From contig JBHLOI010000004.1 in NCBI GenBank assembly GCA_048940645.1, positions 32,001 through 96,000 on the forward strand: a stretch of 64,000 nucleotides of DNA. The letters are read 5' to 3'. The notes under the pieces are model-generated. The model ran no database searches. It worked only from the letters and a program-made list of their open reading frames with translations, and had not been told where the DNA came from. Positions 4,491 through 16,730 of the stretch are shown piece after piece. Numbering within the stretch: position 1 is the first letter of the stretch; each line of letters opens with the position of its first letter. The translations under genes were made by a program, and so were the position numbers. The stretch comes from Promethearchaeota archaeon. GTDB taxonomy: Archaea > Asgardarchaeota > Lokiarchaeia > Sigyniarchaeales > SOKP01.

Positions 4491-5543
4491 TTGAGGGATT
4501 GTTTTATTATGATAGTAGAATTAGAAAAAGATATGAAAGATAATGAAATCGTTAAAAAAACGAAAAAGTTGAGTAAAAGACTACAAATTACCTTAGGAAC
4601 AGCTGGTATAATTGCAATTGTTATCATATTATTATCTTTAAGTTATTATTTTTTCAAGGTACCAGAGGGGTTACCTCAGATAATAATTTTTGGCACAACG
4701 CATGGAGCTATTATTTCCCTACTTGCAATCGGGCTCTCATTAGTGTATGGTGTAGGAGGAGTTATGAACTTAGCTCATGGGGGATTCTATTTAATGTCAG
4801 GATATATTTTTTACTGGACGGTAACGGCTACGAAAGTATTCATGCCATTTGGGGGAATAATATTAGGTATAATTATAGTATTGATAGCTATAACGATTAT
4901 TGGAGCTGCTTCATACCTCTTATTTATTAAACCTTTGATGAATTCTCCTATAGGTGTATTAATGGTTACATTTGCTATTGCTTATTTCTTTCAAGCATTG
5001 ATTCTGCTGATAGTTCAAGTATCCCACCCATTATTAATGGATGAATTAATTCCAGGTAGTATTACAATTTTTGACGTTACATTCGGCGCTCAAAATATCT
5101 TAATCATTATTCTTTCATTATCAATTGTAATCGGTGTTACAATATTTATTAGTAAAACTAAACTTGGGAAATCTATTAGAGCAGTTGCTCAAGATAGAGA
5201 GGCAGCAATGCTTATGGGTATAAATGCTGATAGAATCCTTATGTATGTTGTAATGATCTCTGCTTTTTTAACAGGTGTAGCAGCAATCCTCAATGTACCC
5301 AAAGAATATATATCACCCTATGTGGGTTGGGGCATTTTAGCAGAGTCATTTGCAGTTGTTGTTCTTGGAGGATTGGGAAGTTTACCTGGTAGTGTTGCTG
5401 GATCATTCATCCTTGGCTATGCAACTTCTATCTGTAATTATCTGATCGACCCCTCTTTTGCTGCTTTAATCCCTGGTATTGTGATCGTGGTAACCCTTGT
5501 ACTAAGACCTCAGGGCTTATTTGGAAAAAAAGAAATTGATTAA
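4491..5543 (+). CDS. livH: Branched-chain amino acid-type ABC permease
   Basis: NLAHGGF, TKLGKSIRAVAQDREAA, LGGLGS motifs; true start may be ATG 4533. Confidence 0.9.
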   Translation: MRDCFIMIVELEKDMKDNEIVKKTKKLSKRLQITLGTAGIIAIVIILLSLSYYFFKVPEGLPQIIIFGTTHGAIISLLAIGLSLVYGVGGVMNLAHGGFYLMSGYIFYWTVTATKVFMPFGGIILGIIIVLIAITIIGAASYLLFIKPLMNSPIGVLMVTFAIAYFFQALILLIVQVSHPLLMDELIPGSITIFDVTFGAQNILIIILSLSIVIGVTIFISKTKLGKSIRAVAQDREAAMLMGINADRILMYVVMISAFLTGVAAILNVPKEYISPYVGWGILAESFAVVVLGGLGSLPGSVAGSFILGYATSICNYLIDPSFAALIPGIVIVVTLVLRPQGLFGKKEID

Positions 5544-5585
5544 TTTATTAAAAAGATAGTAATAATTAAAGGTGTTTATATAAAA

Positions 5586-6611
5586 GTGTCAAAATTAAAG
5601 GAAATTATAGGAAATTACATTAGGATTAAAAGTAAACCTTCTCGTCGTCTAATATCTTGGGTAAAAACCTTTAAGGGTAGTTTAACATTACTCTGTTTAC
5701 TTGGACTATTTGCTTTACCATTGCTTACTGATAATCCATATTATTTGGGAATATTTATTAATGCAGCGATTTTTTCAATTTTTGCTGCAAGCTGGAACTT
5801 TTTAGGGGGGTATACCGGACAAGTAAGTTTTGGACATGCAATATTTTTGGGCATGGGTGGTTATATAACTGCATCTTTAGTTCGTTATTTTAATGTCGCA
5901 TGGTCCATTTCACTTATTGTGGGTGGGCTCTTTTCTGTATTAATTGCCTTTTTCATTGGTATTATTTGTTTACGATTAAAAGGCCCCTACTTAGCTTTAG
6001 GAACCATGGCTTTAGGTCTTTTTACAATGGCTTTATTCAATAATGAGTTACTGGGAACAGCTAGTGACTGGCTATTTTTCGGATCACAGGGAATTGATAG
6101 AGTCCCTCGCATCTCTAGAGATGTAGTAGAAATATTTTATGTTTATCTGATTATTATGATAGTTTCAGTTATAATAATGATTCTTATTGGTGATTCTAAA
6201 ATGGGTACAATTTTCAAATCCATTCGAGATGATGATACTGGAGCCGAAGCCTCAGGTATTAATTTAACTAAATATAAAGTTATTGCATTCATGATAAGTG
6301 GCTTTTTTGCAGGAATTGCTGGAGGCCTTCTCGCTATGCAATCTAGGAATGTAGCTCCTGCATTTTTTCAGCCTCTTTATTCATTTTACGCAATAATTAT
6401 GACTGCTATCGGAGGAATAGGTTTAATATCTGGATCAGTCCTTGGAGGCTTTATTTTCTTTGGGTTAGAAGCATTATTAAGTGACGTATGGGATCCAGTA
6501 TTTTTATTTTCTATCATCTTAATTTTAATCATTCGATTTGCTGAAATGGGACTTTTAAGACCTGTCTTAGAACACTTAAGAGATCTCTGGGATTTGGTAT
6601 TAGGAAAATAA
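5586..6611 (+). CDS. livM: Branched-chain amino acid-type ABC permease
   Basis: GYTGQVSFGHA, LRLKGPYLAL, IRDDDTGAEASGI motifs. Confidence 0.9.
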   Translation: MSKLKEIIGNYIRIKSKPSRRLISWVKTFKGSLTLLCLLGLFALPLLTDNPYYLGIFINAAIFSIFAASWNFLGGYTGQVSFGHAIFLGMGGYITASLVRYFNVAWSISLIVGGLFSVLIAFFIGIICLRLKGPYLALGTMALGLFTMALFNNELLGTASDWLFFGSQGIDRVPRISRDVVEIFYVYLIIMIVSVIIMILIGDSKMGTIFKSIRDDDTGAEASGINLTKYKVIAFMISGFFAGIAGGLLAMQSRNVAPAFFQPLYSFYAIIMTAIGGIGLISGSVLGGFIFFGLEALLSDVWDPVFLFSIILILIIRFAEMGLLRPVLEHLRDLWDLVLGK

Positions 6612-7391: not shown

Positions 7392-8088
7392 ATTAAAAAA
7401 AATTTATCATTATTATGGAAAAGCTAAATCTCTTGAAGAGATAAATTTAAAAGTGGAACAAAAATCCTTAGATTCCGTTATAGGACCCAATGGTGCTGGA
7501 AAATCAACTCTTCTTAGAGTAATTTCCGGATTAGAAGAGCCTGATAGAGGTAAAATCATCTTCGAAGGAGTGAGAATTGATGAAGAAAAACCTTATAGAA
7601 TTGCGAGAATGGGAATCGCCCATTGTCCAGAACGCCGAAGACTTTTTTATGATATGAGCGTTGAGGAAAATCTTAGCATGGGGGCATATTCACTAAAGGA
7701 TAAATCAAAATTAAAGGGATTATTACAATTTATATTTGAAATTTTTCCTCGTCTTAAGGAAAGAAAGAAACAAAGAGCTGGAACTCTCAGTGGTGGTGAA
7801 CAACAAATGCTTGCTATAGCACGTTCTCTTATGTCAAACCCAAAATTACTCTTAATGGATGAACCTTCGTTAGGACTTGCACCTAAAATTAAAAACAAAA
7901 TATTTGAAGCCATCCAAAAAGTTAAAGAAGAAGGTACTACAACACTTTTAATTGAACAAGATGCTGTCTTAGCTATGGATATAGCAGATTATATTCATGT
8001 ACTAGAAGAAGGAAAAATCGAAATGAGAGGTACAAAACAAGAATTAAATCGAGAACCTAGAATTAAACAAGTATATTTAGGGATTTAG
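7375..8088 (+). CDS. livF: ABC ATPase
   Basis: GPNGAGKST, LSGGEQQMLA, DEPSLGLAP. Confidence 0.92.
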   Translation: MKNLLELKKIYHYYGKAKSLEEINLKVEQKSLDSVIGPNGAGKSTLLRVISGLEEPDRGKIIFEGVRIDEEKPYRIARMGIAHCPERRRLFYDMSVEENLSMGAYSLKDKSKLKGLLQFIFEIFPRLKERKKQRAGTLSGGEQQMLAIARSLMSNPKLLLMDEPSLGLAPKIKNKIFEAIQKVKEEGTTTLLIEQDAVLAMDIADYIHVLEEGKIEMRGTKQELNREPRIKQVYLGI

Positions 8089-12280: not shown

Positions 12281-13483
12281 TTAACTAATTCTCAATATTA
12301 TACTTAACAAGATTGGAAATTTTTCTTCAGACCCCCAAATCACATAGATTTTATCATCAATTGGTATAGCAACATGCTTTGCCGCAACAATCCAATCTGT
12401 TCCAATATTATTCGCCGTTTTAGTATCTTCTTTAAATTTTAGATGCATAATTGCTCCAAAATAATCACTTATTGTTGTATGAGTGATTTTAATATCCTTT
12501 AAATCTGGATTTGTGAATTCTTCTTTTATTGGATCTGGCTGTAAATGTCCTTTTAGTTTCTCGTACGACAGTTGTAAAGCTGCTTGAATGATGACTTCTT
12601 CTTTCACAGCTTTATCATATTCAAATATAATAAGCCCACAATCTTTTTCAACTCCAATTATTCCTAAAGCGTTATATTCTTTTGAAACATCAATCCAACC
12701 ATTTTCTGAACTCTCACCCATTATATATCTAAAAGATTTTAGAATCTTTAACTCATCTTCCCTTTCACTAATTATATTATCAATAACTTCATTGAGAGGT
12801 CTAGCAACATAGATCATTGTACCTGTTGGGCGTTCCATGACTTTATCAACCCATCTTTTATTAATTAACCGTTCAATGATCCTATAAATTGTCGTTCTCT
12901 TGATATTCAGTTTTTTATTAAGATTTCCGACCTTTTCTCCTTTTTCACCAATCTGAAGTAGAGTCAAATACACCTTTGCCTCTTCAAGTGTTAATCCAAC
13001 CTTCAATAAACCTAATCTTTGTAAGTTCTGAGTGTCATCTAGCAAAACTTTTGGAGTAGCCCATTTAATCTCTTTAATTTTACCTAAACTTGTATGGGGA
13101 TCTAAATAAGGATCCTTTTTACGTAGTTCTCCTAAAGTCCTTGAAGCATCCATTAAACCTAATAGTATTGTATCTCCAGGCTCTATTCTACAGATAATTC
13201 TCCTCTCATCATCCTTAAATCCAATGATACTACCTCTTTTTTCTAAATTCATAGCAACAAGCCTTTCATATGAAACTTGTATAATTTTGTATTTAATTTT
13301 ATCAATAAGAAGCTCTCCGAGTTCTTGTGAATCCCATAAAGAATTAATTTCTTCTAAATCATCAGTAATATCCCAATTATCAGATGAATAGACTATTTTA
13401 CTATTTCCTTCAATAATGATTGTTGAGATAATTCTAGATTCAGGTGTAAGAAATTTATCTAACCTGTTGATAATTTTTTCCAA
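12281..13483 (-). CDS. Fusion: profilin-like domain + TrmB-family winged HTH + unknown C-terminal domain
   Basis: N-terminus IVYSSDNWDITDDL...IDKIKYKIIQVSYERLVAMNLEKRGSIIG resembles Asgard profilins; GLTLEEAKVYLTLL...KRTTIYRIIERL is a TrmB HTH; TTG start after GGAGG. Confidence 0.75.
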   Translation of the reverse strand: MEKIINRLDKFLTPESRIISTIIIEGNSKIVYSSDNWDITDDLEEINSLWDSQELGELLIDKIKYKIIQVSYERLVAMNLEKRGSIIGFKDDERRIICRIEPGDTILLGLMDASRTLGELRKKDPYLDPHTSLGKIKEIKWATPKVLLDDTQNLQRLGLLKVGLTLEEAKVYLTLLQIGEKGEKVGNLNKKLNIKRTTIYRIIERLINKRWVDKVMERPTGTMIYVARPLNEVIDNIISEREDELKILKSFRYIMGESSENGWIDVSKEYNALGIIGVEKDCGLIIFEYDKAVKEEVIIQAALQLSYEKLKGHLQPDPIKEEFTNPDLKDIKITHTTISDYFGAIMHLKFKEDTKTANNIGTDWIVAAKHVAIPIDDKIYVIWGSEEKFPILLSIILRIS

Positions 13484-13543
13484 TTCTCCTTAACCTCCTT
13501 TTTAAAATGGAATAAAAAAAATTGAAAATATTAAAATATTTCA

Positions 13544-14680
13544 TTAAAAACACCTATGTATTATTTTAGGGCCAAATTCTTTATATTCACGTCGAGTAAT
13601 CCACATCCTATGAAATGTCTTTAATGATCCTAAAATTGAGCCTCCAATCCACACTGAATACATACGTTCTGGTGGACTGATAATTCTTACTTCTACGGAT
13701 TCAGAAATCATTTCCTTTATCTCTTTTGTTAATCTTTCCTTAATACCTGGAAACATAGTAGAACCACCTGACAATACAATATTGCTATAAAGGTCTCTTC
13801 GAAGGTCAACATCACATTCAGATATAGCGCTTACAATAAGATCATCAATTGGGTCTAACTCTTTTCCTATCACTGATGGATTGAAAAAACATTCAGGAGC
13901 TAAGAATCTCTCTATTCCTAAGCTAACAGTTTCTCCATCCGGAAGCATAAATAATTTTTCCATTCCAGCAACTTTCTTAGAAAGTAATAATTCTTTTTCT
14001 GGATCTATTGCAACATAACATAGCTTTTCTTTAATATCTCTTACAATTTCAATTTCAGCAGTTGAGGTGAATGAATAACCTTTTTGTCTTAGCAACCTTT
14101 GTAAATATTTTGTAACGTCTCTTCCTGCTAGATCTATTCTTTGTATAGCATGGCTCAATGCAAATCCTTCATATATCGGAACAATATGAGACACTCCATC
14201 GCCAATATCTATTACAGTTCCTGTTGTTCTTCCTGAAGCATATAAAGATAACACTGCTTGCATTGCAATGTACAATGCAGGTACATTAAATGTCTCAAAC
14301 ATGATTTCTGCCATTTTCTCTCTATTTTGTCGCGGATTCAATGGTGCTTCTGTAAGGAGTATCGGATGTTCTGAAGGATCAATTCTTAGGTCAGTATAAT
14401 ATGTATAATGCCATAATTTTTCCATAGCAGGCCAATCTTCTACAATACCATGTTCGATCGGAAATTTAAGACTTAAAAGACCTCTAAGTTCCATTGCCTC
14501 TTCTCCAATATAATAATCTCTAGAAAAATGTTTTACATCTGGCATCACAGTTCCATATTTTGGAGTACCAATCATGGTAGGAAAAACCGATCGTGGTTGA
14601 TCTTCTCCACCAAAACCGTTTTTGGAAATTCCTGTTCCATTATCTAAAATAATAGCCCTATTAAATTTTAATTCTTCCAT
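13544..14680 (-). CDS. Asgard actin (Lokiactin-like)
   Basis: [63 protein letters not shown] and C-terminal HRCF; collinear with eukaryotic actin. Confidence 0.98.
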
Positions 14681-14851: not shown

Positions 14852-14892
14852 TATTTAAATGTTGTCACAATATTGTCGCATCATTGCGACAA
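14852..14892 (-). promoter_or_regulatory. Actin promoter: TATA box with adjacent palindromic site
   Basis: Minus-strand TTTAAATA (14852-14859); perfect TTGTCGCA-N4-TGCGACAA (14873-14892); extra half-site TTGTCACA (14862-14869). Confidence 0.55.
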
Positions 14893-14917
14893 ATGAATAT
14901 ATATTCATAAACTAGAT

Positions 14918-15532
14918 TTAGTTATATTTTTTAAGAAATTTTTCAGCTGATTTTCTAGTTTTAAGGCTTTTACATTCCAGTTGAGCTTTTACAAATTCAA
15001 TGACTTCTTCCTTATTTTCTATTTCATTAAAGAATTCATTGAAAGATTCAATAATATATGCTTTTATTAAGTCTTTACGGCTAATTTCGTGATGTGTCTC
15101 ATCTATACTTAATAATACTTTAGTTAGCTTATCTCTTAGGTGCGGTTTTGCTTTAGCAATGGTGCCAAGATTCGCTGCTAGATGCCCAGCTGTCATTACA
15201 CTTTTAGCATCAATTAAATTACAATAAATATCAAAAATATCTTCAAACTTATTTTTAGTATCAATTCTGGCAAGGTTGGCGAGAATTTGAATTCCAATAA
15301 CTTTATGGAAATTGTTTTGACTTTTTAGCAAATCAATAAAAAAATCCCAATGTGGATAAAGGACTTCTGGTTTATTCTGGCTTATAATTAATAAGACTTT
15401 ATGGCTATTATATCGAATAATTTCAGCTTTAGCTATAAGATTATTTATCAATTCAACTAATATTTTAGGATCTTCTATTGCTTTATTAATAAGGCTTTCA
15501 GGTTCAAAATCTTTCTTATTTAGATTATGCAA
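14918..15532 (-). CDS. Alpha-helical (ARM/HEAT-like) hypothetical protein
   Basis: Helical repeat pattern; IRYNSHKVL...PEVLYPHWDFF. Confidence 0.6.
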   Translation of the reverse strand: MHNLNKKDFEPESLINKAIEDPKILVELINNLIAKAEIIRYNSHKVLLIISQNKPEVLYPHWDFFIDLLKSQNNFHKVIGIQILANLARIDTKNKFEDIFDIYCNLIDAKSVMTAGHLAANLGTIAKAKPHLRDKLTKVLLSIDETHHEISRKDLIKAYIIESFNEFFNEIENKEEVIEFVKAQLECKSLKTRKSAEKFLKKYN

Positions 15533-15599
15533 ATTTTATCCCTACATAATTTAATTTTAATAAAAGAAAATTAAAAAAAAGTTAAGAATAGATATACTT

Positions 15600-16730
15600 T
15601 TAGCTTCGCTTTCTTTTATCACGCGCTTTCTTTTTTTCATCAATAAATACCCAGATTATTAATGAACTTGCACCAACAATTCCAATTGTTACCAAAGAGA
15701 TTATTAAAATAGTCTTTTCATCCATAATTATTCTATAAATTGGCTCGGTTTTAAACAAATCAGCAATTGGAATCATCTTACCAATAATTCCACTTTCATT
15801 CCCACTGGGATAGATTCTACCATGTGTAAATCCGAAATATTGAACTCCAGGAGCTCCAGGTACGATTTTGGCTAATTCGTCATCCAAATTCAGTTTAACA
15901 ACTTTGCTAAAATCGTGATGATAATAAATATAAATATCACGACTAACAGGATCAAAAATATTGCTATACCATGTTTGATACATAGCTACAGCATTTAAAA
16001 CCTCCCGACAAATGTCAACGGTGAGGACTTCTTCAGAATTAACATCGTCAAGTATAGAACAGGCGGCATCATAGCGCTCACATGGATACCATCCATTTGA
16101 TGGATTTGCTAAGTTAAAATTAGTTGAAACTAGATAATTTGAATCATTTATACGTGTATATGCGAATTCTCCATCAATTCCCGCACTCACAACTACAGCA
16201 TCACCTGTAGCATCAGCATAGTGCATCTGTGCTGCAACTGCTGTACCAAAATAATAATTTTCAAAAAAATCAATAGCATCCTCAACATTACTTAATTCCC
16301 ATAACCATTGAAACCCAACGTGTATTTCTGGGTAAGTATCATTCCGTTCGGGGTGGTCATTCAGGGGAGCGACTGGTAATCCATTTGCATCATAACACAA
16401 GCCTTGATCATTCATCCCGCCCTGTGGCACTCCATCACCTATAAAATAATTATTGTAAAATCCAAAAAATATCATTCCATGCATAAGTTGCTTTCCTTCA
16501 GGAGTTCCCGGGTCAATTTCTTGACTTGGAATAAGCCATATGTATACTCCTTCCATATCGTAATCTTCACTATTTCCAAAGAAGACTTTATCACCTAACT
16601 TAGCTGTAAATATTGTACAGGATTGAGCAATAGGATGAGGGGGATGGATACTAACAATGTTAATAATTTGGATATTTGTAAAGAGACAAGAAAAAATAAA
16701 AAAATATAATAAAAGTCTTTTAGATTTCAT
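15600..16730 (-). CDS. Secreted, membrane-anchored Ntn hydrolase (linear amide C-N hydrolase/C45-like)
   Basis: Signal peptide, SCTIF nucleophile, GNSED, GGMNDQGL, STNF; C-terminal TM and basic tail. Confidence 0.8.
   Translation of the reverse strand: MKSKRLLLYFFIFSCLFTNIQIINIVSIHPPHPIAQSCTIFTAKLGDKVFFGNSEDYDMEGVYIWLIPSQEIDPGTPEGKQLMHGMIFFGFYNNYFIGDGVPQGGMNDQGLCYDANGLPVAPLNDHPERNDTYPEIHVGFQWLWELSNVEDAIDFFENYYFGTAVAAQMHYADATGDAVVVSAGIDGEFAYTRINDSNYLVSTNFNLANPSNGWYPCERYDAACSILDDVNSEEVLTVDICREVLNAVAMYQTWYSNIFDPVSRDIYIYYHHDFSKVVKLNLDDELAKIVPGAPGVQYFGFTHGRIYPSGNESGIIGKMIPIADLFKTEPIYRIIMDEKTILIISLVTIGIVGASSLIIWVFIDEKKKARDKRKRS

Follow-up and report, generated by a model that had tools for sequence, protein, structure and literature searches.

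Why should an archaeon encode, directly behind an actin gene, a protein in which a profilin domain is joined to a DNA-binding domain? The question is raised by a 64,000-nucleotide stretch of a Promethearchaeota archaeon genome (assembly GCA_048940645.1, contig JBHLOI010000004.1, positions 32,001 to 96,000 of the forward strand; hereafter the window), in which an actin gene is followed on the same strand, 60 nt after its stop codon, by a 400-residue open reading frame (ORF), just where a sequence-only reading of the window had placed them. We propose that the second gene encodes a single-target autoregulator of an accessory actin, which would sense monomeric actin through its profilin domain; for the chain as a whole we put the chances at about even, and its separate links are graded below. 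The two genes, here called the cassette, and the parts of the regulator are as follows.

13544-14680, minus strand: cassette actin gene (378 residues; Pfam Actin PF00022, E 3.8e-130)
12281-13483, minus strand: regulator ORF (400 residues; TTG start at 13483, 60 nt past the actin stop codon)
13097-13483, minus strand: profilin domain (regulator residues 1-129; sequence and fold match to profilins)
13037-13096, minus strand: linker part (residues 130-149; highly conserved, modelled at low confidence, with a predicted local distance difference test score, pLDDT, of 33-40)
12719-13036, minus strand: TrmB winged helix-turn-helix and long dimerisation helix (residues 150-255; PF01978; aligned with TrmBL2)
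12284-12700, minus strand: C-terminal alpha/beta domain (residues 262-400; conserved; modelled with pLDDT 84)

The association of these two genes is widespread among their relatives. Among 44 related loci, drawn from species-representative genomes, 42 have an actin gene directly upstream of the regulator gene and on the same strand; of the other two, one is at a contig end and one is a distant relative whose product has no profilin domain (L044). Homologues unlinked to actin genes, a possibility that the earlier reading had raised, are thus not what is seen. Chance adjacency of actin and regulator is rejected on the same 42 loci, far more than would be expected by chance. More than 150 full-length homologues of the regulator, of 400-475 residues and 45-100% identity, are conserved in every part of the protein, and in the alignment their first methionine falls at the position of the window's TTG start. 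Public records name the protein a 'helix-turn-helix' or 'TrmB-domain' protein.

Residues 1-129 of the regulator are a true profilin homologue by both sequence and fold. A phmmer search of residues 1-140 against all PDB sequences matched solely Asgard profilins, the best being 5zza_P (E 3.7e-7), and a profile of the family matched Loki profilin-1 (5yed, E 5.1e-15), Loki profilin-2 (5zzb, E 4.2e-14), Odin profilin (5zza, E 1.9e-11) and Thor profilin (7pbh, E 5.2e-9). The AlphaFold model of the regulator, with a pLDDT of 70.5 overall, reaches 80-88 across most of this domain, and its residues 11-129 superpose on Odin profilin with a Z-score of 13.9 and a root mean square deviation (rmsd) of 2.4 Å over 106 residues. 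Z-scores for the domain range from 11.9 to 13.9 against Asgard profilins and from 10.4 to 13.4 against eukaryotic profilins, with those of yeast (13.4), Acanthamoeba (12.9) and plants at 11-13.4; Foldseek gave E 3e-7 for the fold. The domain thus models as the profilin that had been recognised from sequence, and not as a roadblock, longin or GAF domain, the alternatives then considered. It does not stand alone, but forms the first third of a three-domain protein.

Profilin domains serve as modules on several effector proteins in these archaea. Two free profilins are encoded in the window's own genome: a 202-residue 'long profilin' (L046:1459-2067, plus strand), which is the nearest own-genome relative of the regulator's domain, and a canonical 134-residue Loki-type profilin (L048:1483-1887, plus strand). 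The long profilin occurs in most genomes of the family and has the linker motif of the regulator (SSK..Y.D....LGK) in its C-terminal extension. Profilin domain and linker motif are also found fused to a leucine carboxyl methyltransferase (LCM; PF04072, E 1e-31 to 2e-33) in the products of L091:2947-4212 and L092:2653-3960, both on the minus strand, and one of them comes from a different family within the same class; these fusions could be actin-directed methyltransferases. A further set of matches (P0140, P0167, P0188, P0170, P0162) includes three Ras-family GTPases with a C-terminal profilin domain of this type, one fusion of a zinc ribbon with profilin, and one protein of 2229 residues with 13 short stretches that match this profilin type. 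The joining of profilin to other effectors, such as the LCM methyltransferases and Ras GTPases, fits a targeting or sensing role for the domain.

The second domain is of TrmB type. Pfam TrmB (PF01978) matches residues 160-228 with an E-value of 1.8e-11 and 44.1 bits, against a cut-off of 25.6, in agreement with the TrmB-family winged helix-turn-helix read from the sequence. The winged-helix region of the model aligns with residues 1-102 of TrmBL2 (5bpd_D; Z-score 12.7, rmsd 2.2 Å), and helix 230-255 superposes on the TrmBL2 dimerisation helix, from which dimerisation is predicted. The linker motif that precedes this domain comprises P125 and Y126, L133, G134 and K135, and K140, W141, T143 and P144. 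The wider region of residues 125-155 (13019-13111 in the window) is near-invariant, including L147, N153 and Q155, yet is modelled with a pLDDT of only 33-55.

The architecture first proposed, a profilin domain with a TrmB winged helix, holds for these two parts, but it left out the third conserved domain, residues 262-400. Searches with this C-terminal domain gave neither a profilin nor a TrmB sugar-binding domain, although it may still be an effector of the latter kind: its profile found nothing under E 0.06 among PDB sequences, Pfam gave no match, Foldseek gave none at E 1e-3 or better (best E 4e-3), and an atlas search returned the domain's own family alone. The best matches, all weak, were of the PsbP/Mog1/DcrB/Apa type, and a wide structural search reached a Z-score of 7.3 at most. 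The distant relative at L044 (296 residues), whose gene has no actin neighbour, combines the winged helix with the C-terminal domain but has no profilin domain, implying that the profilin domain was added to an older regulator, in which the C-terminal domain was already the partner of the winged helix.

What might such a protein bind? A concrete candidate target is provided by a TrmB-style palindrome on the promoter of the cassette actin itself, where four elements lie close together.

14874-14891, no strand assigned: candidate operator TGTCGCA-ATGA-TGCGACA, a perfect palindrome with the core TGTCRC-N6-GYGACA
14863-14869, minus strand: TGTGACA, a third half-site, lying 11 bp beyond the proximal arm on the downstream side and separated from the TATA box by 3 nt
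14852-14859, minus strand: TATA box TTTAAATA of the actin promoter, following the palindrome
14894-14907: second perfect palindrome TGAATATATATTCA, 2 nt upstream of the candidate operator

The candidate operator begins 211 nt upstream of the actin start codon, and a promoter at this position would imply a 5' untranslated region of about 150 nt. The palindrome resembles the TrmBL1/Tgr site TATCAC-N5-GTGATA; in that family, sites upstream of the BRE (transcription factor B recognition element) and TATA box activate, whereas those on or after these elements repress (PMC4158304).

The core palindrome occurs exactly once in the 3.83-Mb assembly, compared with no occurrence of a reversed control. 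Of 41 loci, 31 have the exact core ahead of the cassette actin and most of the others have versions bearing 1-3 mismatches. A box of TTTAAATA type comes after the palindrome in each of the 31 exact-core loci, reading TTTATATA in two. Its spacing is fixed in every locus: the palindrome ends 2-4 nt before the TTTAAATA-type box or else an extra half-site does so, such that a GTGACA or GCGACA half-site always terminates 2-4 nt ahead of the TATA box. The third half-site is found in the window's clade and a few further loci. The two arms covary, being GC/GC in the window's clade and AC/GT elsewhere, while the spacers drift. When the operator arms are set against the winged helix, position 210 alone separates the GC-type clade (Arg or Cys) from the AC-type, an anecdotal link that involves one clade and has one member that breaks the rule. 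The neighbouring TGAATATATATTCA palindrome, which only the window's clade (L001, L002, L003, L006, L027) conserves, in the form TGAATA-N2-TATTCA, could be the site of another factor.

Palindrome and regulator also occur together. Across the 135 related genomes of the window's GTDB family, the palindrome is present in 37, never twice in one genome (control 2). It is found in 33 of the 45 genomes that have the regulator, in each case 80-245 nt upstream of a cassette actin, and in 4 of the 90 that do not, so that 33 of its 37 occurrences precede a cassette actin. The promoters of 23 core actins contain no such palindrome even when up to 2 mismatches are allowed, and no locus has a second copy ahead of the regulator gene. 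That the regulator binds the predicted site and regulates the cassette is very probable.

For the profilin domain, the candidate ligand is the adjacent gene product. When the cassette actin was modelled in complex with regulator residues 1-130, the ipSAE (interaction prediction score from aligned errors) was 0.77, compared with 0.00 for the best control; of 80 solved complexes 58 reach the mark that it passed, as do 2 of 110 mismatched pairs. Three modelling runs had at least 90% of their contacts in common, with a partner pLDDT of at least 81. In the modelled interface, actin residues 170-177, 290-293 and 355-378 face strands 66-80 and the C-terminal helix of the profilin domain, and the contact lies in the actin barbed-end cleft, which we take to be the canonical profilin site. 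Modelling with the adjacent actin, as the sequence-only reading had suggested, thus puts the domain where a profilin would be predicted to bind. The regulator retains strand residues Q69, T/S71, E/D73 and R/K74. Linker residues 125-129 also contact actin in the model, and the linker may couple actin binding to DNA binding. Core and cassette actins are identical at 23 of the 26 actin contact residues, and the profilin domain could therefore read either actin pool. We think it probable that the profilin domain binds actin.

The gene beside the regulator is indeed an actin gene, as first read, but it encodes a faster-evolving accessory paralogue and not the core Lokiactin, which is encoded elsewhere in the same assembly, 83-86% identical to the cassette actin and with no palindrome upstream. 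Dozens of genomes in the family encode a core actin near-identical to the one in this genome, and over all 135 the core protein hardly varies. In a quick tree, core actins form a single clade with tiny branches and a support of 100 (Shimodaira-Hasegawa-like approximate likelihood ratio test, SH-aLRT), with the cassette actins outside it on longer branches. The 58 differences between core and cassette actin are concentrated at residues 36-75, the region of the DNase I-binding loop (D-loop). Among relatives of the cassette actin, neither the catalytic Gln nor the catalytic His varies. Two isoforms of actin are thus maintained in these archaea, a core one whose sequence hardly changes and an accessory one that evolves fast. 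At least two close actins are present in 37 of 45 regulator-bearing genomes, compared with 3 of 90 regulator-less ones.

Several individual loci deserve mention here. The core Lokiactin gene of the window's genome is split over two contig ends (G000 C50:8873-9850, L051/L085, and C10:1-213, L054). One genome, G241, carries two cassettes (C47 and C16) together with a core actin. In the regulator-less genome G226, a further actin of 80% identity stands in tandem with the core one (C48:2647-3762 and 5381-6490; L082), and the cassette actin at L042:1652-2719 contains stops, being either frameshifted or badly assembled.

How might the three parts of this module, operator, accessory actin and profilin-TrmB regulator, work together? 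The regulator would dimerise through its TrmB-type helix, and the dimer would bind the sole palindrome, which abuts the TATA box of the accessory-actin promoter. It would thereby control the transcription unit of actin and regulator, and hence its own synthesis. Its profilin domain would take up monomeric actin at the barbed-end cleft, altering DNA binding; because this surface is almost the same in core and accessory actins, its occupancy would report the free-actin pool. The most likely logic is a homeostatic negative feedback, in which high free actin would result in less accessory actin being made. The analysis shows what the domains are, the synteny of the genes, that the site is unique and that it goes together with the regulator; binding of DNA and of G-actin (monomeric actin), an allosteric link between the two and the sign of control are inferred. 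Repression is slightly favoured over activation, since the candidate site overlaps the BRE.

Between actin and regulator, two further features are seen.

13514-13521, minus strand: run of eight T, inside the 60-nt spacer between actin and regulator
13494-13498, minus strand: GGAGG Shine-Dalgarno sequence ahead of the regulator's TTG start

Actin and regulator appear to form a single transcription unit. T runs of 6-14 separate the two genes in most loci, and the run in the spacer may terminate part of the transcription and so hold the regulator at a low level. An Rfam search of the window found no RNA family. Between actin and regulator, 19 of the 44 loci have a conserved ORF, about 65 residues long (motif GIPCIVLDEGI), for example at L018:7753-7950 and, as a tandem pair, at L043:7466-7669 and 7676-7870. 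Pfam assigns this ORF to no family; the window lacks it, and it was not found in the rest of the window's genome. Where present, it may be a third component of the cassette.

On the chromosome, the cassette has a conserved position, flanked by uvrA and by a gene for an HD-domain protein; the latter neighbour is kept in most loci. In a cassette-less genome of the same genus these two flanking genes are 385 nt apart, compared with 4.8 kb in the window. An origin as a mobile element is rejected in view of the 385-nt spacing of the same flanks in this cassette-less relative and the conserved HD-domain neighbour. The 4.8-kb insertion also carries, in the part at 14918-16730 of the window, a gene for a 204-residue protein, which is seen again solely in the nearest relatives of the window and at a single further locus (L035), and a gene for a 376-residue membrane-anchored protein.

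The spread of the module is narrow. Full-length regulators are found in 44 genomes, with one more cut by a contig end, and all belong to the one GTDB family of 135 genomes, a family of Loki-type archaea; none was found among some 265 other sampled genomes of the phylum. Stop-containing fragments of the C-terminal domain in two regulator-less genomes hint at decay, and we conclude that the cassette is an accessory chromosomal module that is often lost. Synteny across Asgard genomes, which had been suggested as a check, is therefore borne out in the linkage to actin and not in breadth, the module being limited to about one-third of the genomes of one family. The NCBI names of some metagenome-assembled genomes (MAGs) with matches (Thor, Odin, Hermod, Hod) would give a wide Asgard distribution, which we reject because all full-length matches fall in the one GTDB family. 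Seven loci titled Hod-, Hermod- or Odinarchaeota by NCBI (L003, L004, L005, L011, L022, L031, L039) have actins up to 98% identical to the window's, and these names look unreliable.

Could the regulator do its work without sensing actin at all? It might be a dedicated autoregulator of the accessory actin in which the profilin domain has been reused, for oligomerisation or for some other ligand, while the C-terminal domain reads the signal. The existence at L044 of the winged helix and C-terminal domain without profilin makes the C-terminal domain the older effector module, and it could be the actual sensor. This is one of several observations that weigh against actin sensing as we have proposed it. 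The predicted contact residues are not especially conserved (mean entropy 1.79, compared with 1.54 for the rest of the domain; 9191 of 10000 random sets were as low), although this test does not discriminate, the comparison set including buried core residues. Across 32 paired loci, the variable actin residues (170, 369 and 372) show no covariation with the contact residues of the regulator. Pfam Profilin (PF00235) is not listed for the 400-residue regulator at E-values up to 1, and scores the related 202-residue profilin paralogue at 21.9 bits, below its cut-off of 25. The success of the complex model may reflect its likeness to the solved complexes 5yee, 5zza and 5zzb. On the DNA side, 12 of the 45 regulator-bearing genomes lack an exact site, with variants of 1-3 mismatches in related loci; the family's genomes are related and not independent, such that the palindrome counts overstate the statistics; and the palindrome overlaps the BRE upstream of the TATA box, a position that does not fix the sign of regulation (PMC4158304). 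Against a regulator blind to actin stand the clear homology of its N-terminal domain to profilins whose binding of actin is established by experiment, the consistent location of the profilin-bearing regulator, but not of its profilin-less relative, beside an actin gene, the retention of the four key strand residues, and a complex model that passes where the controls score 0.00. On balance we consider such a dedicated autoregulator without actin sensing unlikely.

The order of the parts invites a different comparison, with the plasmid-segregation system ParMRC. The palindrome might be centromere-like, and the two profilin domains of a dimer might grip the barbed ends of accessory-actin filaments, thereby moving or anchoring the locus, with autoregulation a side function, as it is for ParR at parC. 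Cis-site, actin and DNA-binding adaptor do follow one another as in the textbook parC-parM-parR; there is a single site per genome; the module is accessory and its actin evolves faster than the core actin; the modelled contact is in the profilin site of actin, which textbook accounts equate with the cleft that ParR peptides use on ParM; and the differences between core and cassette actins cluster in the D-loop region, a filament contact. A lone palindrome is a poor match to a repeat array, however, and its fixed distance of 2-4 nt from the TATA box points to the requirements of an operator. The conserved chromosomal spot between the HD-domain gene and uvrA is likewise not that of a plasmid or mobile element, and profilin binds actin monomers far better than filament ends. 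DNA positioning of this kind is thus rather improbable, and there is only a slim chance that the cassette is an actin-driven DNA-positioning machine built of eukaryote-type parts, an Asgard counterpart of parC-ParR-ParM and possible forerunner of the coupling of cytoskeleton to chromosome. The roles could also be reversed, with a protein that mainly regulates actin, its profilin domain buffering or delivering accessory-actin monomers, and DNA that only parks or titrates it. The profilin homology, the predicted canonical interface and the encoding of both proteins in an apparent single transcription unit would suit such a role. The genome already has free profilins, however (L048, 134 residues; L046, 202 residues), the T run suggests that the regulator is expressed far below actin, and a unique palindrome embedded in a promoter is ill suited to be a parking site; we regard this as very improbable.

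If the autoregulator that we propose is real, it is a DNA-binding regulator with an actin-monomer-binding domain and exactly one target, an actin gene, and we have found no published account of such an actin-binding regulator in a prokaryote. Full-text literature searches, whose coverage is incomplete, returned no description of a profilin-TrmB fusion, in keeping with the sequence-only reading, which knew of none. Recent literature on Asgard biology, including a review, mentions only free profilins. In eukaryotes, feedback from the cytoskeleton to gene expression runs through MRTF-SRF. Our proposal would imply that Asgard archaea had such feedback too, in a simple version built on a single protein, with the module confined to about one-third of the genomes of a single family.

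The cassette and its parts can be set beside several known systems. With the stand-alone Asgard profilins (5yed/5yee, 5zzb, 5zza, 7pbh), the regulator's domain shares its sequence family, its fold and the modelled barbed-end face for actin. Those proteins are, however, of about 120-145 residues, whereas here the domain is one of three in a protein of 400, joined to a DNA-binding one. With TrmB, TrmBL1/Tgr and TrmBL2, the regulator has in common a winged helix of PF01978 type that leads into a dimerisation helix, a palindrome at the BRE and TATA box, to which binding is predicted here, and a likely autoregulation. In contrast, the winged helix is N-terminal in the TrmB family but lies in mid-protein in the regulator, with the profilin domain in front. 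The TrmB proteins also have a sugar-binding effector domain, whereas none is recognised in the regulator, in which the C-terminal domain has weak PsbP/Mog1-like matches, and the regulon of the latter appears to be a single promoter.

The likeness to ParMRC is one of order, with a cis-site (14874-14891), an actin-fold ATPase (13544-14680) and an adaptor (12281-13483, minus strand) in the sequence parC-parM-parR. In both systems the site overlaps the promoter, and the regulator is predicted to bind at the cleft between actin subdomains 1 and 3. The components differ: ParMRC employs ParM, a ribbon-helix-helix adaptor and a repeat array and is carried on plasmids or mobile elements, whereas the cassette has a eukaryote-like actin, a winged helix, and one palindrome with one half-site, and is chromosomal. 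The closest parallel in logic would be with MRTF-SRF, in which a transcription regulator also binds monomeric actin and the output of actin genes tracks the monomer pool, as we suggest for the cassette. The parallel is one of logic only, with no claim of homology between the two. MRTF is a cofactor that carries RPEL motifs, has an SRF/MADS partner and is controlled by nuclear transport, whereas in the archaeal regulator the profilin domain is fused straight to the domain that would bind the DNA.

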